DNA from: Conexivisphaerales archaeon
Lineage (GTDB): Archaea > Thermoproteota > Nitrososphaeria > Conexivisphaerales > DTJL01
Reading direction: 5' to 3'
DNA length: 24,000 nt
NCBI GenBank assembly: GCA_035543015.1
Contig: DATKKG010000075.1
Coordinates: 1-24,000 of the forward strand
Position numbers and translations under genes: made by a program. The notes beneath the pieces are model-generated. The model was not told the origin of the DNA, did no database searches, and worked only from the letters and a program-made list of their open reading frames with translations. Shown here piece after piece: positions 4,506 to 21,097 of this stretch; the stretch's first letter is position 1, and every line of letters begins with the position of its first letter.

Positions 4506-5564
4506 CTACCTGCCCTCTCCTGAGGCTAGGTCTTCGAGCACCTGGTAGCAGTGCATGGCGTCCTTGGACTCGAGCACGACTATGGCCGTAAGCGTCGCAG
4601 TGATGTATTCGACCAGGTTGATCCCATGTGCCGCCAGCTCCGCCGTTATGACCGCGGCCACCCCGGGGACCTTCATCGTGGCTTCCGACAACGAAATCAC
4701 GACCTCCGAGAGGTTGTCGATCACTCGCAGTATGCTCTTCTGCGGGATCAAGGAGGTTAGCTTCTCCTGATTCTTCGCGTCGAACACCACGCTCACCGTC
4801 TCCAGCGCGGACACCATGTGAAGGGTCTCGCCCCTCGCGTAGTCGACCTCGCCGTTGAACTTGGCAAGCCCGACGGAGACCTCCGGGGAATTGAGTATCA
4901 CGTAGTCGACTATCCTGTCTTTCAGCAGGAGCTTCTGGATGTACTTGCCCACGCCTTCAGGCATCGCCTTGTGCTCGGCGGCGTGGAACCTCTTCACGAC
5001 CTTCACCAAGGGCTCCTTCGTGCTCACCACGCGCTTCTGTCCCTTTGCCCAAGGAAGCACTACCCTGTAGACGTCGACCGGGAAGGCCACGTTCTTCATA
5101 TCGTGAGACTCTAGCTTGATCAGAGGGTAGCGAAGTTTGTTCCGGATCTGGTCGTAGACCTGCTGGGAGATGCACACTTCGCCGCCCGCGGCCATCGGCT
5201 CGATCCTGGAAGCGATGTTGACGGCGTCACCGAAGACGTCGCCGGCCTTATGGACCACGTCTCCCACATGGATGCCTATCCTGACTTTCACCTTCGTCCT
5301 GGCTCTCTGGTTGTAGTCATGGAGGACCTTCTGGATCTCGATTCCGCACCGGGTCGCTTCCAGCGCGCTCCTGAACTCGACCAGGAAAGCGTCACCCATC
5401 GTCTTGACCTCGGTACCTCCATGCCTGCGGAGCACCGGTCGAATCAGCTCCCTGTGCTTCTCAAGGAGCTTAAGGGCCAGTCGTTCGTTCTTCTGCGTTA
5501 ACGCAGAGTAGCCTACGATGTCCGTGAACATGATTGCCGCTAGCCTTCTTTCGGAGCCGGTCAA
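4506..5564 (-). CDS. Class III adenylate (nucleotidyl) cyclase catalytic domain fused to a C-terminal ACT-like domain
   Basis: The N-terminal 170 aa carry the CHD signatures MFTDIVGYS, VKTMGDAFLVEF, RIGIHVGDV and GDAVNIASRIE (both metal Asp, the Lys, and the Asn/Arg pair). The C-terminus, PGVAAVITAELAAHGINLVEYITATLTAIVVLESKDAMHCYQVLEDL, looks like an ACT fold. The only start keeping strand beta-1 is TTG at 5564; the first ATG is residue 12. Confidence 0.85.
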   Translation of the reverse strand: MTGSERRLAAIMFTDIVGYSALTQKNERLALKLLEKHRELIRPVLRRHGGTEVKTMGDAFLVEFRSALEATRCGIEIQKVLHDYNQRARTKVKVRIGIHVGDVVHKAGDVFGDAVNIASRIEPMAAGGEVCISQQVYDQIRNKLRYPLIKLESHDMKNVAFPVDVYRVVLPWAKGQKRVVSTKEPLVKVVKRFHAAEHKAMPEGVGKYIQKLLLKDRIVDYVILNSPEVSVGLAKFNGEVDYARGETLHMVSALETVSVVFDAKNQEKLTSLIPQKSILRVIDNLSEVVISLSEATMKVPGVAAVITAELAAHGINLVEYITATLTAIVVLESKDAMHCYQVLEDLASGEGR

Positions 5565-6802: not shown

Positions 6803-6933
6803 AAGAGCTTCCCGTAGGCCGCGGCACCGTTTTGTTTCTCTGGAGCCATCAGTGGGGGCCAGGCTACTGTGCCGATGTCTCACTCTCCCAATACCACATA
6901 TGCGATGAGCGTAAGCAGGCCTTTCACCCTGAT

Positions 6934-6999
6934 CCGTATCATTATCGTATCACCCAGATTGCGGGCCGTATCGACATCGTACCACAGAACCTACTTACC
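6934..6999 (+). promoter_or_regulatory. Copy A of a 66-nt upstream module with four phased (C)GTATC boxes
   Basis: 52/66 ungapped identities with 8282-8347. GTATC/GTACC boxes fall at module offsets 3, 14, 35 and 46 (spacing 11/21/11 nt). Confidence 0.6.
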
Positions 7000-7034
7000 G
7001 CATCTATTCCATGGGCAACTCCGTGATCATGCAA

Positions 7035-7460
7035 ATGACACAGAATACGTCTTCCGGTATTCATAGCGTAGCCTGGATCCTCGCCCTCGTCGGCGGGATC
7101 CTGATGGTGCTGGGCGGTGCGTTGCTCCTGGGCGTCGGGGCCTTCGTCCTCCCGCATATGGACTTCACCGACGTCACGGTGCCGCAGAACTTCCCGGCTT
7201 CCGACATCCCGGCCCTCGCGTCCGGCTTCGTCGGCACGATGGGGGCCTTCGGGATTGTCTCGGGAGCCATAGTCCTAGTCTCGGCGATCATGCTCCTGAG
7301 GGGCACGAGCTCATGGAGGCTGTGGGGCGTCCTGATACTCGTCTTCTCGGTCCTCAGCTTCGTCGGGTCGGGCGGCTTCGTCCTCGGGGCGATCCTGGGG
7401 ATAATCGGCGGGATAATGGCCCTCGCATATAAGCCACCGATGCAGCAGGTCCAGATGTGA
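7035..7460 (+). CDS. Hypothetical polytopic membrane protein
   Basis: Gly/Leu-rich TM segments (WILALVGGILMVLGGALLLGVGAFVL, GAIVLVSAIMLL, GFVLGAILGIIGGIMALA). Start chosen at the ATG at 7035 (MTQNTSSG) because this codon block is conserved with the 8385 gene; the longest ORF starts at 7011. Confidence 0.65.
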   Translation: MTQNTSSGIHSVAWILALVGGILMVLGGALLLGVGAFVLPHMDFTDVTVPQNFPASDIPALASGFVGTMGAFGIVSGAIVLVSAIMLLRGTSSWRLWGVLILVFSVLSFVGSGGFVLGAILGIIGGIMALAYKPPMQQVQM

Positions 7461-7559
7461 GCTGGCTGCACCATACCGCGCAAGCTTGGCAAGTGGTGGC
7501 GACCGTGATCACAGAACACCCTGTTCTTTCATATTCAGAACGGCAGCGGATGGATCCCT

Positions 7560-8258
7560 TTGAGCGACCTTAGCCGTCTGGGATTCTGGTCCGCCGTCCT
7601 GACCTGCATCTTCGCGGCCGCCGCCCTTGCTCTGGGCGTCTTCACTCCTCCTCTTCCCTCCGGCTGCACCAACTGCACCGTGTACCCCTACACCGGGGCC
7701 GCATCGCTCTTTCCGGCAGTGTCCCCCTTCATGTATCCAGCCTCTCTAATGGTACTGACCTTCGCCGTCCTCATGGCATGCGTCTACGAAGGCGCCCCAG
7801 GGGACAGAAGGATATACGGCCTGGTCGCCCTGTGTTTCGCGCTCACCTGTGCGACTGTCATCGCAGCTGACTACTTCATCCAGCTCGCGGTCGTACAGCC
7901 CAGCATCCTGAAGGGCGAGACCGAGGGGCTCTCCCTCATCATCCTGTTCAATCCCCATGGAGTCGGCATCGCCCTTGAAGACCTGGGGTACCTGATGATG
8001 AGCCTCTCCTTCCTCTTCGCGGGAATGGTCTTCATGGGACGCAGCAGGCTCGAGCGTGCGATACGGGTGATCTTCACTGGCAGCTCCCTGCTGGCGATCG
8101 CCGCTCTAGTCATACTGTCGCTGCTCTACGGGGCGAACCTGGAGGACAAGTTCGAAGTGGCTGTCATCACGGTGACCTGGACGGCCCTCATCATCTCCGG
8201 CGCGCTGTTGGGCATGTTCTACAGAAGACTTGGCAGCTCAGTGGCCCCGACCTCCTAA
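7560..8258 (+). CDS. Hypothetical polytopic membrane protein
   Basis: 232 aa with about 6 hydrophobic segments and GC3-rich codons. Only a TTG start (7560) is available. No family recognised. Confidence 0.65.
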   Translation: MSDLSRLGFWSAVLTCIFAAAALALGVFTPPLPSGCTNCTVYPYTGAASLFPAVSPFMYPASLMVLTFAVLMACVYEGAPGDRRIYGLVALCFALTCATVIAADYFIQLAVVQPSILKGETEGLSLIILFNPHGVGIALEDLGYLMMSLSFLFAGMVFMGRSRLERAIRVIFTGSSLLAIAALVILSLLYGANLEDKFEVAVITVTWTALIISGALLGMFYRRLGSSVAPTS

Positions 8259-8281
8259 CATACATCTTCGTTTCATCACTG

Positions 8282-8347
8282 TCGTATCAATATCGTATCA
8301 CCCAACTCGCCACAGGTATCGACACCGTATCGCCGAACCTACTTACC
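8282..8347 (+). promoter_or_regulatory. Copy B of the 66-nt upstream module with four phased GTATC boxes
   Basis: tcGTATCaatatcGTATCacccaactcgccacagGTATCgacaccGTATCgccgaacctacttacc has all four boxes perfect. It lies 37 nt upstream of the ATG at 8385 (copy A lies 35 nt upstream of 7035). Confidence 0.6.
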
Positions 8348-8384
8348 CCCGCTGACCCTGTACCAGGTCCGTGGTCAGATAGAA

Positions 8385-8954
8385 ATGACACAACAGACGT
8401 CGACCGGCAGTCTTGGTGGGCTCCCGGGAGCCAGCTCCGAAACCTGGTTCTCCCGGCGAGTCATGCACTGGGTCGTGAAGGACAGGATGACCCCAGGAGA
8501 GCGCGTGGGGGAGGGAGTGGCCATCCTCCTGATGCTCGCAATGGCCGCCTTCTTCGTCTCGAACCAGGTTCAGCAGACGGGGTTCTTCACTTCGGCCTTC
8601 GGGCCCCTGGAGATGCTCCTCTTCTACGCGTGCGTTCCTATGGGCCTCGCCCTGAACGGCGCGAAGATGGTCTTAGGACGGAGGAACCTGGCAAGACCTC
8701 TTGAGACGGTGAACGCGGCTCTCATGATCGTCTCCAGCGCCTGGTTCTTCGCGGTCTTCCCCTTCGACTTCACTCACTTCTCCGCTCTGGTGCCCAACGT
8801 CCTGAAGTTCGCCGTCTCCTGGATCCCCAACTGGCTCGCTAGGGACCTCCTAGTCTTGGGCTTCGTCGCGGGGATCGGTAATCTCGTCTACAATCCCATA
8901 ATGTACTTCGCCGTCAGACGGGCAGAGAAGGTTGATGTAGCCCTCACGAGATAG
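8385..8954 (+). CDS. Hypothetical membrane protein
   Basis: 189 aa with 4-5 hydrophobic segments. The N-terminus MTQQTSTG is paralogous at nucleotide level to MTQNTSSG of the 7035 gene; the rest is unrelated by eye. Confidence 0.65.
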   Translation: MTQQTSTGSLGGLPGASSETWFSRRVMHWVVKDRMTPGERVGEGVAILLMLAMAAFFVSNQVQQTGFFTSAFGPLEMLLFYACVPMGLALNGAKMVLGRRNLARPLETVNAALMIVSSAWFFAVFPFDFTHFSALVPNVLKFAVSWIPNWLARDLLVLGFVAGIGNLVYNPIMYFAVRRAEKVDVALTR

Positions 8955-8980: not shown

Positions 8981-9976
8981 ATGAAAGCCGCCGTGTACAC
9001 GAGATACGGCCCTCCGGATATCCTCAAGATCGCGGATGTCGAGAGGCCGGTTCCGAAGGACGACGAGGTGCTGGTGGAGGTCCACGCGGCCTCGCTGAAC
9101 GCCGGCGACTGGTACCTCATGAGAGGAAAGCCCTTCCTGGTCCGGATGGCGGGGGGAGGGCTGATGAAGCCCAGGAACCAGAGGTTGGGAGCCGATCTGG
9201 CCGGGCGGGTCGTAGCGATAGGGGCCGGCATAACCAAGTTCAAGCCAGGCGACGAGGTATTCGGGGATACAGGCATCGGAAGCGGCAGCATCGCGGAATA
9301 CGCTTGCGCACGCGAGAGCGATCTTGTGCTGAAGCCGGCCTCCATGGCCTTCGAAGAGGCAGCCGCAGTGCCGCTCGCGTCGGTCACGGCCCTGATAGGG
9401 CTTCGAGACGAAGGGAGGGTCCAGCCTGGGCAGAAGGTCCTCATCAACGGGGGTTCCGGCGGGGTGGGGACCTTCGCGGTGCAGATCGCCAAGGCGATGG
9501 GGGCGGAGGTCACCGCCACATGCAGCCCCGGGAAGGTGGACCTCTTGCGCTCCATAGGCGCAGATCGCGTCATCGACTACACGAAGGAGGACTGCACCAG
9601 GGAGGGGCCACTCTACGACGTGATCCTCGGCGTCAACGGATATCATCCGCTCTGGGCCTACGGCCGGGCGTTGAAGCAAGGGGGGATCTACATCATGGTC
9701 GGGGGCTCCATGGGTCAGATCCTCCAAGGGTTCCTGTTGAGCCGGCTGATTCCTCTAGGCGGAGGCAAGAGGATCGGGGTGGTCGGGGTGACGACGGAAA
9801 GACGAGCGCGCGCCTCCCAGGACCTGGCCTACGTGAAAGAGCTTATCGAAGCCGGCAAGGTGAAGCCCGTCATAGACCGACTTTTCCCCATCGACGAGAC
9901 CGCCGAAGCCCTCCGGTACGCAGAAGAAGGCCACGTCCGGGGTAAGGTCGTCATCACTGTCGCAAATCGCGCATAG
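8981..9976 (+). CDS. NAD(P)H-dependent MDR-family oxidoreductase (quinone oxidoreductase / zinc-independent ADH-like)
   Basis: 331 aa. MKAAVYTRYGPPDILKIADVERPVPKDDEVLVEVHAASLNAGDW, GDEVFG, the Rossmann motif GGSGGVGTFAVQIAKAMGAEV, and C-terminal GHVRGKVVI. Confidence 0.9.
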   Translation: MKAAVYTRYGPPDILKIADVERPVPKDDEVLVEVHAASLNAGDWYLMRGKPFLVRMAGGGLMKPRNQRLGADLAGRVVAIGAGITKFKPGDEVFGDTGIGSGSIAEYACARESDLVLKPASMAFEEAAAVPLASVTALIGLRDEGRVQPGQKVLINGGSGGVGTFAVQIAKAMGAEVTATCSPGKVDLLRSIGADRVIDYTKEDCTREGPLYDVILGVNGYHPLWAYGRALKQGGIYIMVGGSMGQILQGFLLSRLIPLGGGKRIGVVGVTTERRARASQDLAYVKELIEAGKVKPVIDRLFPIDETAEALRYAEEGHVRGKVVITVANRA

Positions 9977-11148: not shown

Positions 11149-11622
11149 CTAGTCCGGACGTTCCAGTCCGGCGTTTATCCTCTTCGCCGAGTTATACGCG
11201 TCGTAGACGTTGTATATCCAGAAGAGCGGATAGAGGATTAGCCCGACGAAGAAGATGATGGTGAAAAGACAGACTATCCCCACTGCCACGAAAGTGATGC
11301 CCTTGCCTATCTGCCCGTTGTATATCTGACCCAGCCCTGTAAAGAGGAAGGAGAGGACAGCGGCTATTCCCGGATTCTTCTGCTCCGACGGCCAGGGAGC
11401 GGCCATGACCCTCTTGCCGCACCTGGGGCACATCTCCGCGTCCGTAGGAATCACGGCACCGCAGTGCTGGCAATACTTGCCCGTGCCGGCCTCGACGCTG
11501 ATCACCGGGGTACCGGAGACCCCTCCAGCGGGGGACGTCGTCGAAGAAACCGCCGTACCGCAGTTGGGGCAGAACTTCGCGTCCGCGGCCAGCTCCCTGC
11601 CGCAGGTCGTGCAGAAAGCCAT
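11149..11622 (-). CDS. Double zinc-ribbon plus TM2-domain membrane protein
   Basis: MAFCTTCGRELAADAKFCPNCG and YCQHCGAVIPTDAEMCPRCG are two CxxC...CxxC ribbons. They are followed by the TM2 signature AAVLSFLFTGLGQIYNGQIGKGITF. The ATG at 11622 avoids overlap with the upstream gene; the long ORF reaches 11724. Confidence 0.8.
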   Translation of the reverse strand: MAFCTTCGRELAADAKFCPNCGTAVSSTTSPAGGVSGTPVISVEAGTGKYCQHCGAVIPTDAEMCPRCGKRVMAAPWPSEQKNPGIAAVLSFLFTGLGQIYNGQIGKGITFVAVGIVCLFTIIFFVGLILYPLFWIYNVYDAYNSAKRINAGLERPD

Positions 11623-11675
11623 TGTCCATCCTTTCCGCGACGGTTCATATAAGGCTTGAAGGACAGGCCGGCTCG

Positions 11676-12026
11676 TCACGGGTGCAGGTGCCGCCACCTG
11701 CGGGCCGAGAGCAGGAAGATCCAACCCTTTGCGACCAAGGCGAGGACGGGCACGGCCCTCCTAGAATCAGCCACCCGGATCAAGGCTTCCCTCTCCGCTG
11801 TCGACAGCTTCTCGACGAACGTAACCGGCCTGCGCGTCGCCTTCACCTGCACCAACCAGTGCCGGCGTCCCTTCCTTGCCTCCATATCGTAGGGCCCGCG
11901 GCTCGCCGGGGATATCCTGACCTTCCATCCCTTCTTCCTCAGGCGCTCCGCCACTCGCCTCTCCATCTCTGAGCCGTATTCGAACTCGTTCAAGGAAGCT
12001 CCCTGCTGGGGACAGAAGTCAACCAA
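11676..12026 (-). CDS. Hjc-like PD-(D/E)xK nuclease-fold protein (Holliday-junction-resolvase family) with Q-V-K in place of E-x-K
   Basis: GSEMERRVAERLRKKGWKVRISPASRGPYDMEARKGRRHWLVQVKAT...AVPVLALVAKGWIFL parallels remembered Pyrococcus Hjc ([46 protein letters not shown]...GIPVLAVKF..GWRFI). The start is uncertain: TTG at 12026, TTG at 11993 or ATG at 11966. Confidence 0.6.
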   Translation of the reverse strand: MVDFCPQQGASLNEFEYGSEMERRVAERLRKKGWKVRISPASRGPYDMEARKGRRHWLVQVKATRRPVTFVEKLSTAEREALIRVADSRRAVPVLALVAKGWIFLLSARRWRHLHP

Positions 12027-14570: not shown

Positions 14571-15404
14571 ATGCCCGTCTTGAACGACGAAGAGCTCACC
14601 AAGACCCTGATGCGCTTCGGAATCACCCGCCAGGAGGCCGAGGTCTTCCTCCTCCTCTCCAAGGTCAAGAAGGGGGGAATCGAATGGATCGGAGGGAGGG
14701 AGGCGGCCTCCGTAGCGCACAAGAGCAGGGTGAGGACCTACCAGGTCCTCGAAAGGCTCGCGGAGCTGGGACTGGTCAGCACCGACTTCAGCAGGCCCAA
14801 GAAGTACTCGGCTGAGGCTCCCCAGGTCGCCGTCAGAAGGCTCATGGGCATCCACGAGGCCCGACTCACGGAGCTGAGCCACCTGGAAGGAGACGTCGTA
14901 GATGGGCTCTTCAAACTGGAGCCGCCTGACCTGGGTTCGCTCAAGGAAGAAGAAGAGGAGGGGAGGACCAACGTCGTCCTCCTTAGGGGGCTCCCCAACA
15001 TTCAGAACACGTTGAGAAAGGTCATGGAATGCGAGGAGCTGGCCATGACCATCAACGAGGAGTCCGCCGCGCATCTAATGAGCACCCTGGCATACCTGAC
15101 GGAGAAGCCGGGACGCCTGATCCTTCTGCTTTCGAAAGAGGTCTCGCGGAGACAGCTCTCCCGGGCCGGCCTGAGCCCCGGCGCTGAGGTGGCCCACTTC
15201 AGGGGAGAGCTCCCAACCATCGTGATGACCGAAAGGCATACCCTCTTCCTGCACTACTCTACCAAGGAATACAGACCACGGCCGCTGTCGCCGCCGACGC
15301 GCAAGTCCAAGGTCACCGACTGCATCCTCGTCGAGGGAGCCTCCTACGTGCACCGGATGAGGGAGGTCTTCGACGCCCTTTGGGATGCCTCCGTGCAGGA
15401 TTGA
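14571..15404 (+). CDS. TrmB family transcriptional regulator
   Basis: N-terminal winged HTH: LMRFGITRQEAEVFLLLSKV...ASVAHKSRVRTYQVLERLAELGLVSTDFSRPKKYSAEAPQVAV, then a coiled linker and a C-terminal effector-like domain. TATA-like gttaatag lies about 22 nt upstream. Confidence 0.85.
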   Translation: MPVLNDEELTKTLMRFGITRQEAEVFLLLSKVKKGGIEWIGGREAASVAHKSRVRTYQVLERLAELGLVSTDFSRPKKYSAEAPQVAVRRLMGIHEARLTELSHLEGDVVDGLFKLEPPDLGSLKEEEEEGRTNVVLLRGLPNIQNTLRKVMECEELAMTINEESAAHLMSTLAYLTEKPGRLILLLSKEVSRRQLSRAGLSPGAEVAHFRGELPTIVMTERHTLFLHYSTKEYRPRPLSPPTRKSKVTDCILVEGASYVHRMREVFDALWDASVQD

Positions 15405-15495
15405 AGTAGTTTCACATGTTGTAAGATATCATCCTAACTAACATCAGTCTTATAGCGTCTCCGAAGTTGGCTTCATTCAGTAAAAGGTGCCAGGA

Positions 15496-17196
15496 ATGAC
15501 ATCCCAGCAGCTGGAAACCGTGACGCAGGAGTCCACACGCATCGACGCAGCAAAGCTAGTCACCCTTCTTGTGCTCAGCCTCGCGCTGGCCATAGTGATA
15601 ATCGACGGGACCATAGTCAACATCGCCCTTCCCTCCATTCAGACCCAGTTCGCCGTTTCGGTCAACGATCTGGAGTGGATAAGCGCCATTTACGCCCTCG
15701 TCTTCGGCGGCTTCCTCCTCACTTGGGGACGCCTGGGCGACGAGTTCGGACGCCGCCGCATTTTCATGGCCGGGATCCTGACGTTCATCTCCGGCTCGAT
15801 GATAACGGGCTTCGCAAACGGCCTTCCTATGATTCTTCTCGGTAGGCTAGTCCAGGGCTTCGGCGCCGCGATGGCTTCACCTTCCACTCTCTCCATACTG
15901 ACGACCACCTTCTACGGCCGCTCCAGAGGGATAGCGTTCGGGATTTGGGGAGCCGTGGCTGGAGCAGCCGGCGCCCTCGGACCTCTGATCGGAGGCTACC
16001 TTACCACATATGCCACCTGGAGATGGGCCTTCCTGATCAACGTGCCAATTGGAATAGTTGCTCTGGCGGGCTCCTACTTCTTCATCAAGGAGTCGATGTC
16101 CAGGTCCGGGCGCTACGACCCCGACTACCGGGGGACGGCTCTAGTGTCATCCGCCCTGGCCCTTCTCATATTCGGACTCATCGAAGGACAGACCTACGGC
16201 TGGCTGGCTGCGAACCAGGTCTTCAAGATTGGCAGCTTCACCTGGCCCTTCACCTCTGTGGCCATAACGCCGGTCGCCATGGCCCTCGGGCTTGTCTTGG
16301 CAGCTGCCTTCGTGCTGAACGAGAGGTCCCGCCTAAGGGCCGACAGAGAGGTCCTCCTCGACCTCAGGCTCCTGGGCTACCGCGGCTTCCGTTTCGGCCT
16401 TCTGACCGTGGGCGTCGTAGCCATGGGTGAGTTCGGCATCTTCTTCATCCTCTCGCTGTATTTCCAGTTGGTAAGGGGGATGAGCGCCCTCTCCACAGGC
16501 TATGCCCTTCTTCCGTTTGCGGGCACCGCTTTCTTCGCAGCACCCCTCGCAGGCCTTCTGTCCTCGCGCATAGGTGCGAAGTGGATAGTCACCACAGGCA
16601 TGGCCCTGGAAGCCACATCTCTGATCTTGCTTTCGCAGCTCACCGGCGTCAATACCTCTCTGACGACGATTTATGCCATTCTGGCGCTCTACGGGGTCGG
16701 AGTTGGGCTGGCGATAGGCCAGCTCACTGGCCTCGTCGTCGGCAGCATACCTCCTCAGAACGCGGGAACGGCTTCGGGCGCCAACAGCACCATTAGACAG
16801 TTGGGCGCGGCCTTCGGCGTGGCCATCATCGGGGCCGTGCTGGTGGCCCAGGTCTCCTCGGTGGGCCAGGCTCAGCTCCAGGCAAGCACAGTGATACCCT
16901 CCTACCTGAAAACGGCGCTAGCTCCCGTACTAAGCCAAGGACTCATCGGAGGCTCTGCCCCATCGCTGCCGCCATCGATCATCAACTCTCCAATAGGCCT
17001 GGCCATTCAGGGGATTTTCAACTCAGCGATAACCGAAGGCGTGCGATACGCCGCCTTGGTTGCCGGGTTCTTCGTCTCCCTAGGGGCGATAAGTTCCCTG
17101 CTACTGCCCAACAACAGGGTCAAGGGAATCAAAGGAGCCAAGAGCTCCCGCAATCAATATACTGAGAGAACCTACAAGGGAGTCGAGGGTAATTGA
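15496..17196 (+). CDS. MFS transporter, DHA2 (EmrB/QacA, 14-TMS) drug:H+ antiporter family
   Basis: LALAIVIIDGTIVNIALPSIQTQF, WGRLGDEFGRRRIFMAG, LLGRLVQGFGAAM and WRWAFLINVPIG, with about 14 hydrophobic segments. The ATG at 15496 has AGGTG 6 nt upstream; the longest ORF starts with GTG at 15487. Confidence 0.92.
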   Translation: MTSQQLETVTQESTRIDAAKLVTLLVLSLALAIVIIDGTIVNIALPSIQTQFAVSVNDLEWISAIYALVFGGFLLTWGRLGDEFGRRRIFMAGILTFISGSMITGFANGLPMILLGRLVQGFGAAMASPSTLSILTTTFYGRSRGIAFGIWGAVAGAAGALGPLIGGYLTTYATWRWAFLINVPIGIVALAGSYFFIKESMSRSGRYDPDYRGTALVSSALALLIFGLIEGQTYGWLAANQVFKIGSFTWPFTSVAITPVAMALGLVLAAAFVLNERSRLRADREVLLDLRLLGYRGFRFGLLTVGVVAMGEFGIFFILSLYFQLVRGMSALSTGYALLPFAGTAFFAAPLAGLLSSRIGAKWIVTTGMALEATSLILLSQLTGVNTSLTTIYAILALYGVGVGLAIGQLTGLVVGSIPPQNAGTASGANSTIRQLGAAFGVAIIGAVLVAQVSSVGQAQLQASTVIPSYLKTALAPVLSQGLIGGSAPSLPPSIINSPIGLAIQGIFNSAITEGVRYAALVAGFFVSLGAISSLLLPNNRVKGIKGAKSSRNQYTERTYKGVEGN

Positions 17197-18017
17197 ACTC
17201 AGCTGAAAGACGTAAGCTGATTTCCAAGTCTCCGATTTCCTTCAGGTACCTCAAGCGCTTCAACACGGCCGCCGGGGCTCTGCATCTCGTCCAAGGGCTG
17301 ATCATGCTGGCCCTAGGCCTCTCTCTGACCTGGAGCCGGGACATCTACACCTACTACCTCAAGTTCTCCGTCATCAGCCTGTCGCCGCCCGTCTTCAAGA
17401 TCGCCCCCAACCCCCAAGTCCTGTTCACCATCAACAACTTGGGCGCCATACTCGCTTCGTTCCTGCTCATATCGGCCGCCGCACACCTCATAATCGCCTT
17501 CGTCAGGAACAAGCAGTACAACGAGAACCTTTCCAAGGGCATGAACCCCTACCGCTGGTACGAATACTCACTGTCCAGCTCAATAATGATCGTCCTGATC
17601 TGCCTATTCCTGGGCATCTGGGACCTCTGGTCGCTGGTTATGATCTTCACGCTCAACGCCATGATGATCATGTTCGGCTACCTCATGGAGAAGATGAACC
17701 AGACCACGGAGAAGACGGACTGGTCGGCCTTCCTCCTGGGCTGCGTCTCCGGAGGTGTTCCGTGGGTGGTGCTGCTGGCCAACTTCGTGGGCCTCATCGG
17801 GTCTACGAACCTCAGGCCCCCGGCGTTCGTCTACATGATAGTGGTCATCTACTTCGTTCTCTTCAACAGCTTCGCCGTCAACATGGTGCTTCAGTACAAA
17901 GGAGTCGGGAAGTGGAAGGACTACCTCTACGGTGAACGCGTCTACATCCTCCTCAGCCTCATCGCAAAGAGCCTGCTGGCGTGGATCGTTTTCGTAGGGA
18001 TCTTCGCGCCGTTCTAG
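17193..18017 (+). CDS. Heliorhodopsin
   Basis: 274 aa. FNTAAGALHLVQ, AAAHLII, YRWYEYSLSSSIMIVLI, LGCVSGGVPW and FNSFAVNMVLQYKGVGKWKDYLYGERVYILLSLIAKSLLAW parallel remembered heliorhodopsin 48C12 motifs. The Schiff-base Lys (SLIAKS), counterion Glu (WYEYS) and both His are retained. The TTG start at 17193-17195 follows an in-frame TAA directly and overlaps the MFS TGA stop (17194-17196). Confidence 0.93.
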   Translation: MNSAERRKLISKSPISFRYLKRFNTAAGALHLVQGLIMLALGLSLTWSRDIYTYYLKFSVISLSPPVFKIAPNPQVLFTINNLGAILASFLLISAAAHLIIAFVRNKQYNENLSKGMNPYRWYEYSLSSSIMIVLICLFLGIWDLWSLVMIFTLNAMMIMFGYLMEKMNQTTEKTDWSAFLLGCVSGGVPWVVLLANFVGLIGSTNLRPPAFVYMIVVIYFVLFNSFAVNMVLQYKGVGKWKDYLYGERVYILLSLIAKSLLAWIVFVGIFAPF

Positions 18018-19936: not shown

Positions 19937-21097
19937 GTGTCAAACAGCTATCTCTTTACATCCGAGTCCGTGGCAGAGGGCCATCCGGACAAGGTAGCCG
20001 ACCAGATCTCCGACGCCATCCTTGACGCCATCCTAGCCCAGGACCCAAAGGCCAGGGTGGACTGCGAGACTCTGGTAATGGAGAGCATGGTGATCGTAAC
20101 GGGCCAAATCACCACCAAGGCGACGGTGAACTACAAGAAGGTCATCAGGGGCGTCCTGAGGGACCTCGGTTTGAACAACGCCCGGGACGGCCTCGACTGG
20201 GAGACCTGTGGGATCCTTGTCTCGATCGAAGAGCAGTCGCCCGACATCGCCATGGGCGTCAACAAGGCTCCCGAGGAGATGGGCGCCGGCGACCAGGGGA
20301 TCATGTTCGGGTACGCCTGCAACGAAACGCCGGAGCTCATGCCCCTTCCCATAATGCTCGCCCACAAGATCGTCAAACGGCTGGCGGAGGTTCGAAAGAA
20401 CGGCGAACTGCCCTACCTCAGGCCCGACGGGAAGTCCCAGGTCACAGTCGAGTACACGGAAGGCAAGCCCGTAAGAGTGGAGGCGGTGGTCGTGGCGGCC
20501 CAGCATGAAGAGCACGTCGACAGGGAGAAGATGAGGAAGGACATCATCGAGAAGGTGATCAAGGAGGTCGTCCCCGCGAACCTCATCGACGCCAAGACGA
20601 AGTATCTTATCAACGAGACCGGCAGGTTCGTCGTCGGCGGAACGCTGGCCGACTCAGGGATAACCGGCAGGAAGATCATAGTCGACACGTACGGCGGGAC
20701 CGGCTCACATGGCGGCGGCTGCTTCGGCGGGAAGGACCCCTCGAAGGTCGACCGTTCGGCGAGCTATATGGCCCGCTACATCGCCAAGAACATCGTCGCC
20801 GCGGGCCTGGCCGACAGAGTTCAGGTGCAGATAGCCTACGCCATCGGAGTGGCGGAGCCCATCTCGGTCTTCGTGACGACCTACGGCACAGGCAAGGTAC
20901 CCGACGCCAAGATCACTGAGCTTGTCAAGAAGAACTTCGACCTGCGCCCCGGCATGATCATCAAACGGCTGGACCTCCTCAGGCCCATCTACAGGAAGAC
21001 GGCCTGCTACGGGCACTTCGGGAGGACCGAGCCGGAGTTCACGTGGGAGAAGACGGACGTCGCCGGCGACCTGAGACGGCAGGCTGGGCTGAAGTAG
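19937..21097 (+). CDS. metK: S-adenosylmethionine synthetase, bacterial/eukaryotic MetK type
   Basis: 386 aa. [57 protein letters not shown] and [19 protein letters not shown], collinear with E. coli MetK. GTG start. Confidence 0.95.

Follow-up and report, generated by a model that had tools for sequence, protein, structure and literature searches.

The 24,000 nucleotides (nt) of the Conexivisphaerales contig DATKKG010000075.1 analyzed here (hereafter the window; G+C content ~59%) carry two copies, A and B, of a conserved module that precedes the start codons of two membrane protein genes, likewise termed A and B. We consider it quite probable that this module represents the whole archaeal promoter-operator of genes encoding DUF6114 proteins, that its repeated boxes are bound by a protein of the DUF7343 family, and that copy B became fused to an unrelated gene, which has likely joined the regulon in this way. 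Beyond the window, the analysis drew on a 211-kb metagenomic contig (ENA ERZ27256600, k141_269963), which is the counterpart of the window at ~99.5% identity and extends beyond it; scanning for modules covered ~37 kb of these 211 kb, that is, the window and locus L002 (individual loci are referred to by such L numbers). For comparison across taxa, 80 metagenomic loci encoding DUF6114 relatives (43–74% identical at the protein level) were used, together with a scan of 185,579 species-representative genomes for a degenerate, 18-base-equivalent pattern, a set that does not include the window's own genome.

The duplication, which had already been noticed in a preliminary description of the stretch, was reproduced exactly: positions 6934–6999 and 8282–8347 are identical at 52 of 66 positions in an ungapped alignment, and the similarity has a sharp onset at the first box and fades ~30 nt into each coding sequence. 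A second conserved block at the start codon could be recovered as well, with 18 identities over the 23 nt from the ATG (7035 in A, 8385 in B). Four GTATC boxes had been described at offsets 3, 14, 35, and 46; this holds for both copies with the exception of box 4 of copy A (6979–6983), which reads GTACC. The window contains three occurrences of GTATC-N5-7-GTATC as compared to 0.07 expected, a number that none of 100 shuffles reached, and both the 22-mer CGTATCANNATCGTATCACCCA around boxes 1–2 and the 13-mer GAACCTACTTACC are found within the window solely at the two modules. In both copies, box 1 is preceded at a distance of 14–15 nt by a possible fifth box, (C/G)TTTCA (6921–6926 and 8270–8275), and an additional GTTTCA upstream of the distal pair of boxes is also present in L057–L061.

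A third copy, C, is found beyond the limits of the window, on the contig that carries A and B and ~15.6 kb upstream of A, where it precedes the gene for another DUF6114 paralogue (P0013, 67% identical to A). It possesses boxes 3–4, the identical GAACCTACTTACC, and a leader, GTCCGTGGTCAGATAGAAATG, that is identical to that of B. Modules A, B, and C as well as the module of the nearest foreign orthologue (L006) are pairwise 71–80% identical, and the copy in front of gene B is therefore old and no recent copy of either A or C.

The module is by no means restricted to this contig. Around 100 promoters from Conexivisphaerales and Nitrososphaerales share the element GTATC-N4-TCGTTTCA-N3-AAC-N2-A-N-TT(TAC), which is encountered, with an invariant core, 64–74 nt before the ATG in nearly all of the 80 DUF6114 loci; in total, the fetched loci yielded 114 matches to the element at ≤3 mismatches. 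The pattern scan of species-representative genomes returned 20 matches, 16 of which reside on contigs of archaeal metagenome-assembled genomes (MAGs) of Nitrososphaerota type, labeled Conexivisphaerales, Nitrososphaerales, 'Thaumarchaeota', in some cases Bathyarchaeia and in one case 'bacterium', the locus of the latter containing the archaeal operon. Using tblastn on these 16, a DUF6114 gene was located in 14 and the putative regulator gene (see below) in 14, while the remaining four matches of the scan are bacterial, lack such a context, and were taken as chance. The genome-wide search that had been proposed in the preliminary description thus ties the module to gene starts instead of revealing a dispersed element, and at more than 100 loci it lies at a fixed distance upstream of the start, in orthologous positions. 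As judged from this conservation, the comparison shows the module to be the native promoter of DUF6114 genes across non-marine (soil and peat) Nitrososphaerota.

In many loci (L008/L012–L014, L016, L019, L022, L094, L101, and others), the regulator gene is preceded by a tandem pair of DUF6114 paralogues, each equipped with its own module. One of them is of a short-leader type (MTQNT... N-terminus) and the other is leaderless (MA.N...), and the first usually has its distal pair at 43–44 nt. The motif is also found, in its leaderless form, before oxidoreductase genes of the medium-chain dehydrogenase/reductase (MDR) family that are oriented divergently to the DUF6114 operon (L014, L029, L045, and L046). 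A DUF4386 membrane protein gene in L094 is likewise preceded by the motif.

The distance from the element to the start codon turned out to be bimodal, amounting either to 25–26 nt (~30 relatives, with the ATG inside a conserved CCATGG) or to 38–45 nt, the latter class having a short leader that is purine-rich or contains GGAGGT. It is established for archaeal promoters that the TATA box of leaderless mRNAs is centered ~26–28 nt upstream of the start. Since the ATG of the leaderless relatives follows 25–26 nt after the TT of (C/G)NA(T/C)TTAC, this sequence can be assigned to the TATA position, and GAACCTACTTACC would accordingly comprise the transcription factor B recognition element (BRE) and the TATA region, with GAAC as part of the BRE. 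TATA-like boxes also precede other genes of the window, at similar distances. By equivalence of CCGTGA (copy A) and CCGTGG (copy B) with CCATGG, transcription is predicted to start near G7023 and G8371, respectively, leaving 5' untranslated regions of ~12 and ~14 nt.

On this basis, copy A can be read on the forward strand as a distal pair (boxes 1–2, GTATCATTATCGTATC, 6936–6951), a proximal pair (boxes 3–4, GTATCGACATCGTACC, 6968–6983) that aligns with the invariant core upstream of ~100 DUF6114 genes, the BRE/TATA-like element (6987–6999), and the initiator-like CCGTGA (7021–7026), which aligns with the CCATGG of leaderless relatives. Copy B, whose boxes were assigned by location and matrix and whose BRE/TATA-like element by the same reasoning as in copy A, would correspondingly consist of the distal pair GTATCAATATCGTATC (8284–8299), the proximal pair GTATCGACACCGTATC (8316–8331), the BRE/TATA-like element (8335–8347), and CCGTGG (8369–8374), all on the same strand. 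The proximal boxes would then occupy ~-55 to -40 and the distal ones ~-87 to -72, all of them upstream of the BRE and of the predicted start. What had been called a promoter, operator, and leader cassette therefore stands as the native DUF6114 promoter; the leader proper, however, is predicted to measure only ~12–14 nt, and the second conserved block presumably represents the initiator, this short leader, and the first codons.

The internal symmetry of the module is dominated by direct repetition at a period of 11 bp. While the position of the proximal pair does not vary among more than 100 promoters, the distal pair, as counted in 106 unique promoters, lies upstream of it at a distance of either 31–34 nt (27 promoters) or 43–44 nt (20 promoters), with no other distances observed; the two classes differ by one helical turn. 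Copy A, with 32 nt, falls into the commonest spacing class. The helical phasing of the boxes postulated at the outset is thus borne out by their distribution in other organisms.

Gene B (8385–8954, forward strand) encodes a membrane protein of 189 amino acids (aa), the body of which, from ~TWFSRRV on, belongs to an unnamed family of 184 representative clusters, with a weak DUF7139 match as the sole hint from Pfam. It is a different family from that of protein A, which is of DUF6114/DUF4064 type, and the two proteins are indeed unrelated, as had been supposed. The first ~10 codons of B (8385–8414, forward strand; MTQQTSTGSL), by contrast, are of DUF6114 origin: MTQ(N/E/K)T.SG (MTQxTxSG) is the usual N-terminus of DUF6114 proteins across many organisms, and at the DNA level, B resembles the 5' ends of DUF6114 genes up to ~nt 30 but not beyond. 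Among the best 150 of the 184 clusters of the B family, no alignment reaches residues 1–8 of B, the furthest beginning at residue 9, and none of 12 homologues that were read begins with MTQxTSxG. Their N-termini differ (e. g., MSETKATKNWF or MSTAQSGSWFERRV), with homology from the WF motif on. The closest relative of B (L106, 58% identical) starts with MSAKPDSTWFSRRV, 30 nt after a TATA box of its own (CCTTATAAGAGG), and is not preceded by boxes; these were also looked for, and not found, in front of the more distant homologues in L107 and L108. Gene B itself has no promoter-like element in front of it other than the module.

Relatives with their own starts and TATA boxes, along with alignments that stop short of residues 1–8, show B to be a chimera composed of the promoter, leader, and ~10 codons of a DUF6114 gene, nine further codons, and the body of another protein, with the transfer running from DUF6114 to B. 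Transplantation, as suggested in the preliminary description, is hence supported, but the origin is more likely to be sought in a deletion or recombination event that joined the gene to a DUF6114 paralogue than in a mobile cassette. The nine codons between the DUF6114 segment and TWFSRRV (8415–8441, GGLPGASSE) match neither parent. The gene caller had B begin at M27 (8463) with 163 aa; since alignments with homologues extend upstream of this residue, the call is too short.

Gene A (7035–7460, forward strand) was identified by Pfam and by 201 homologues, many of which begin with MTQ(N/E/K)T, as coding for a four-helix DUF6114/DUF4064 membrane protein of 141 aa with the N-terminus MTQNTSSG; an ATG at 7029 (143 aa) is an alternative start. 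The gene caller instead proposed the ATG at 7011 (149 aa), which lies upstream of the predicted transcription start, and this call is therefore probably wrong. Overall, the comparison with homologues favors 141 (or 143) aa for A and 189 aa for B, in line with the lengths originally given, so that the gene starts are revised from 7011 to 7029/7035 and from M27 to 8385.

Between the two modules lies gene M (7560–8258, forward strand), which encodes a membrane protein of 232 aa without a Pfam or NCBIfam match and has its own TATA-like sequence, TTTCATATTC, ~27 nt upstream of the start. Relatives of M were sought in 100 related loci but not found, and there is no sign that it belongs to the regulon. 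The idea that gene M or gene B might be a conserved member of the DUF6114 cluster was rejected, as neither has relatives in these 100 loci. Downstream of B, and only 26 nt after its stop codon, begins a gene that family matches assign to the MDR superfamily, namely, to PIG3-like enzymes of the NAD(P)H quinone oxidoreductase type (8981–9976, forward strand). Given this short gap and the lack of a TATA-like sequence within it, the gene is probably co-transcribed with B from module copy B. Relatives of this oxidoreductase with 53–54% identity adjoin the DUF6114 operon in L072 and L033.

A candidate for the protein that recognizes the boxes emerges from the gene neighborhoods. In 62 of the 65 loci with enough sequence, the DUF6114 gene(s) are followed, on the same strand, by a gene for a 170-aa protein, the identity of which amounts to 67–81% between loci whose DUF6114 proteins reach only 43–60%. 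It has more than 670 homologues, which are named 'uncharacterized membrane protein' at most, and a search of the literature revealed no paper naming DUF6114 or DUF7343. Pfam places DUF7343 at residues 103–161 (E = 5e-11), whereas no match to solved structures was obtained by sequence. In the AlphaFold2 model, two transmembrane (TM) helices (residues 2–29 and 54–87) flanking an external loop of ~25 residues are followed by a C-terminal winged helix (103–161; predicted local distance difference test score 85–88), for which Foldseek retrieved ScoC, MftR, HpaR, AF1382, TrmBL2, and RosR with a probability of 1.0 and a best E-value of 4e-4. In the aligned regulators, the recognition helix (LSRLKTHR) does not vary. 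The window itself has no copy of the regulator gene; that of the contig (L002 10486–10998) is situated ~16 kb away behind module C, and the cytoplasmic domain of its product spans about residues 88–170. No other predicted DNA-binding protein occurs repeatedly in linkage with the motif, and because of this gene linkage we infer that the DUF7343 protein binds the boxes. The single multi-site regulator envisaged in the preliminary description is consistent with all of this and can now be given a candidate in the form of the DUF7343 winged-helix protein.

Several observations, however, weigh against this assignment. Four boxes are evidently not obligatory, since the distal pair is recognizable in 47 of the 106 unique promoters and missing from the other 59, and it has decayed even in copy C, which fronts the regulator's own operon. 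Winged-helix proteins of the MarR/ArsR type usually act as dimers on palindromes, whereas the boxes are direct repeats and the module has only one weak dyad, GTT-N6-AAC. Furthermore, the A/T variation of the boxes shows no covariation with the recognition helix of the regulator, a comparison on which little weight rests, as this helix is invariant in the alignment. As the regulator gene is co-transcribed with the DUF6114 genes, membership in the same operon could by itself explain its co-occurrence with the motif.

The last point would be predicted equally well if the module were a genuine promoter-operator but its boxes were bound by an unlinked regulator, with the DUF7343 protein merely being a product of the regulon. 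Such a regulator could be a global one of Lrp type or the TrmB-like protein encoded 6 kb away at 14571–15404. In Thermococcales, the so-called TGM (Thermococcales glycolytic motif) has the sequence TATCAC-N5-GTGATA, and boxes 2 and 4 indeed hold TATCAC, that is, one half of it. The inverted partner GTGATA is absent, though, and the symmetry is that of an 11-bp direct repeat; a TrmB/TGM operator was rejected for this reason, as there is but a half-site. A TrmB gene is also absent among the Pfam-annotated operon neighbors in L002–L005 (the other loci were not screened), while the DUF7343 protein is the one predicted DNA binder that recurs beside the motif and shows higher conservation than the DUF6114 genes that precede it. 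An unlinked regulator thus appears unlikely, if by some distance less so than the notion that the module before B is a passive relic of segmental duplication whose boxes no longer matter, which we deem very improbable. The identity of the copies (71–80%) would agree with a relic, the chimera is found in this lineage only, and the functional case for copy B is indirect. Yet the positions that are unconserved across the family, i. e., the spacer between the pairs and the first 20 nt after the TATA box, have diverged heavily between A and B, whereas the four boxes, the 13-mer, and the initiator block have been kept. On matrices for the boxes and the full promoter, both built from promoters of other organisms, copy B scores equal to or above copy A (28.3 as compared to 27.4 bits for the distal pairs; 36.2 bits for the full promoter of copy B), and B would be left without any other promoter, while its relatives have TATA boxes of their own.

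A transcribed cis-regulatory RNA leader, either a riboswitch or a protein-binding 5' untranslated region, is conceivable inasmuch as a conserved sequence 5' of genes without a match in Rfam (a search of the window returned nothing but tRNA) might represent a new class of RNA. Nevertheless, structure prediction, another check that had been proposed, gave neither a stable fold nor consensus pairs: the sense strand reached z-scores of +0.49 to +0.82 relative to shuffled sequences, the antisense strand did no better, and RNAalifold on 17 diverse copies found 0 pairs and no covariation. Moreover, the ~30 relatives with a start codon 25–26 nt after the TATA-like element fit leaderless transcripts, which places the boxes upstream of the start, and the offset of the distal pair between the two spacing classes is precisely one turn of the DNA helix. 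A riboswitch or RNA leader was consequently rejected for want of an Rfam match, a stable fold, and a consensus structure, and we attach hardly any probability to it. Even less can be said for a fragment of a miniature inverted-repeat transposable element (MITE) or of a dispersed repeat, which has nothing in its favor except repetition itself and seems next to impossible. All three copies in ~37 kb are located at gene starts, and the >100 loci with their fixed distances and orthologous positions are hard to reconcile with dispersal; terminal inverted repeats were not evident on reading the sequence, a search with a repeat tool not having been made. This explanation was rejected because matrix scans of the window and L002 return the three promoters only, with no other site above the level of shuffled sequence.

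Read from 5' to 3', each complete module comprises two pairs of GTATC/GT(A/T)TC direct repeats, spaced 11 bp within a pair and three helical turns from one pair to the next, a putative weak BRE/TATA box (GAAC-CTACTTAC), a CCRTGG initiator region ~25 nt further on, a predicted leader of ~12–14 nt, and ~10 codons of DUF6114 type. If the DUF7343 protein does bind the boxes, several of its subunits would oligomerize along a single face of the helix, right next to the BRE on its upstream side, and the protein would autoregulate its own operon. In view of this location of the boxes and of the weak TATA box, activation by recruitment of TATA-binding protein (TBP) and transcription factor B (TFB), as for ArnR and Ptr2, would be likelier than repression. 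Copy C precedes a DUF6114 paralogue together with the regulator gene and copy A a second paralogue, while copy B probably goes back to an old fusion event by which its gene exchanged its original promoter and N-terminus for those of DUF6114 type; in this manner, copies A and B would bring extra genes, including B and probably the oxidoreductase gene, under the same control. The gene content, with small membrane proteins, a tethered regulator, and a quinone-reductase-like enzyme, hints at a response to membrane or redox-quinone stress. Going further, and only tentatively, since we rate it at somewhat less than an even chance, one may think of a so far unrecognized membrane-tethered one-component system that is widespread in soil and peat Nitrososphaerota. 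In such a system, a sensorless winged-helix protein with a two-helix hairpin would act on phased direct repeats by the BRE and be feedback-controlled within the membrane by DUF6114 proteins that sense the state of the membrane or of the quinone/redox pool, and its regulon would grow by capture of the promoter and N-terminal codons, as exemplified by gene B.

Although ordinary in kind, being the regulon of a transcription factor, the case involves a motif, a regulator family, and a promoter-capture event that are all undescribed. To our knowledge, few pairs of transcription factors and operators have been described for Nitrososphaerota; for the uncultured soil and peat lineages of this group that do not oxidize ammonia, no paper on DUF6114 or DUF7343 turned up in the literature search. 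We also know of no characterized membrane-bound archaeal regulator other than ArnR/ArnR1; the DUF7343 protein would, if the proposal is true, add a second and structurally distinct architecture, and gene B would provide a clean case of regulon growth via capture of a promoter and N-terminus in an archaeon. The analysis also suggests a functional link among DUF6114, DUF7343, MDR quinone-oxidoreductase-like, and DUF4386 proteins. In any case, the outcome is a defined motif, a promoter geometry, and a specific candidate protein, and hence a testable prediction.

The surroundings of the modules offer some further observations. Three small cupredoxin genes are present on the contig (window 352–789 and 5912–6370, both on the reverse strand, and L002 9311–9775, forward strand); one of them is situated directly upstream of copy C and another, together with a gene for a GYD-domain protein, just upstream of copy A, an association of cupredoxins with the module that was not seen in other lineages. 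A reverse-strand gene at 4506–5564 combines the catalytic domain of a class III adenylate/guanylate cyclase with a long C-terminal region that has a weak ACT-like match. Also on the reverse strand, the open reading frame (ORF) for a zinc-ribbon/TM2-domain membrane protein (11149–11724) overlaps by ~50 nt that for an Hjc-like nuclease (11676–12026), the public gene calls for both being shorter and non-overlapping. The TrmB-like regulator gene (14571–15404, forward strand) is located directly upstream of a gene for a major facilitator superfamily (MFS) transporter (15487–17196, forward strand), the end of which is overlapped by 4 nt by a heliorhodopsin gene (17193–18017, forward strand; Pfam E = 2e-95), suggesting that transporter and heliorhodopsin are encoded in one operon. 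Finally, at 19937–21097 (forward strand), this archaeal contig carries a gene for an S-adenosylmethionine synthetase (MetK) of the bacterial, three-domain type.

Among known systems, different ones share individual features with the arrangement proposed here. The bacterial ToxR, TcpP, and CadC are membrane-tethered winged-helix proteins that act on tandem direct repeats upstream of the core promoter, and for such regulators, modulation through a co-encoded or partner protein of the membrane (ToxS, LysP) is common, which offers a plausible parallel to the DUF6114 proteins. Their winged helix, however, is N-terminal and of OmpR type, they possess a single TM helix together with a sensor domain in the periplasm, and the RNA polymerase that they contact is that of sigma-70, whereas the present protein is archaeal, has the reverse topology and an external loop of only ~25 residues, and would work with the TBP/TFB machinery, so that the resemblance is no more than an analogy. 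To the MarR, ArsR, and TrmB proteins, the C-terminal domain of the DUF7343 protein is linked by its winged-helix fold, as indicated by Foldseek, but it lacks the MarR dimerization helices, carries a membrane anchor, and would face a non-palindromic operator upstream of the BRE. Ptr2 of Methanocaldococcus, an activator of the Lrp family that recruits TBP, likewise has paired sites directly upstream of the BRE at a promoter with a weak TATA box, yet it is soluble and its sites are palindromic.

ArnR/ArnR1 of Sulfolobus acidocaldarius is a membrane-bound one-component activator of the flaB (arlB) promoter, in which two boxes at -43 to -84, upstream of BRE/TATA, are both required for binding; it is built from a helix-turn-helix (HTH) domain at the N-terminus, a HAMP-like/sensor domain, and two C-terminal TM helices (PMC6396743). 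The combination of a DNA-binding domain and TM helices in one membrane-bound polypeptide recurs in the DUF7343 protein, and the boxes described here are predicted at nearly the same positions (~-40 to -87). On the other hand, the domain order is reversed, with two N-terminal TM helices, a C-terminal winged helix, and no HAMP or sensor domain; the ArnR boxes are inverted repeats (TCGAC-N5-GTCGA) instead of direct GT(A/T)TC repeats with 11-bp spacing; and ArnR targets archaellum and pili genes, as opposed to genes for small membrane proteins and an oxidoreductase. In function, the putative system thus seems to resemble ArnR/ArnR1 most closely, while its domain order, box symmetry, and machinery would make it a member of neither the ArnR nor the ToxR/CadC family.

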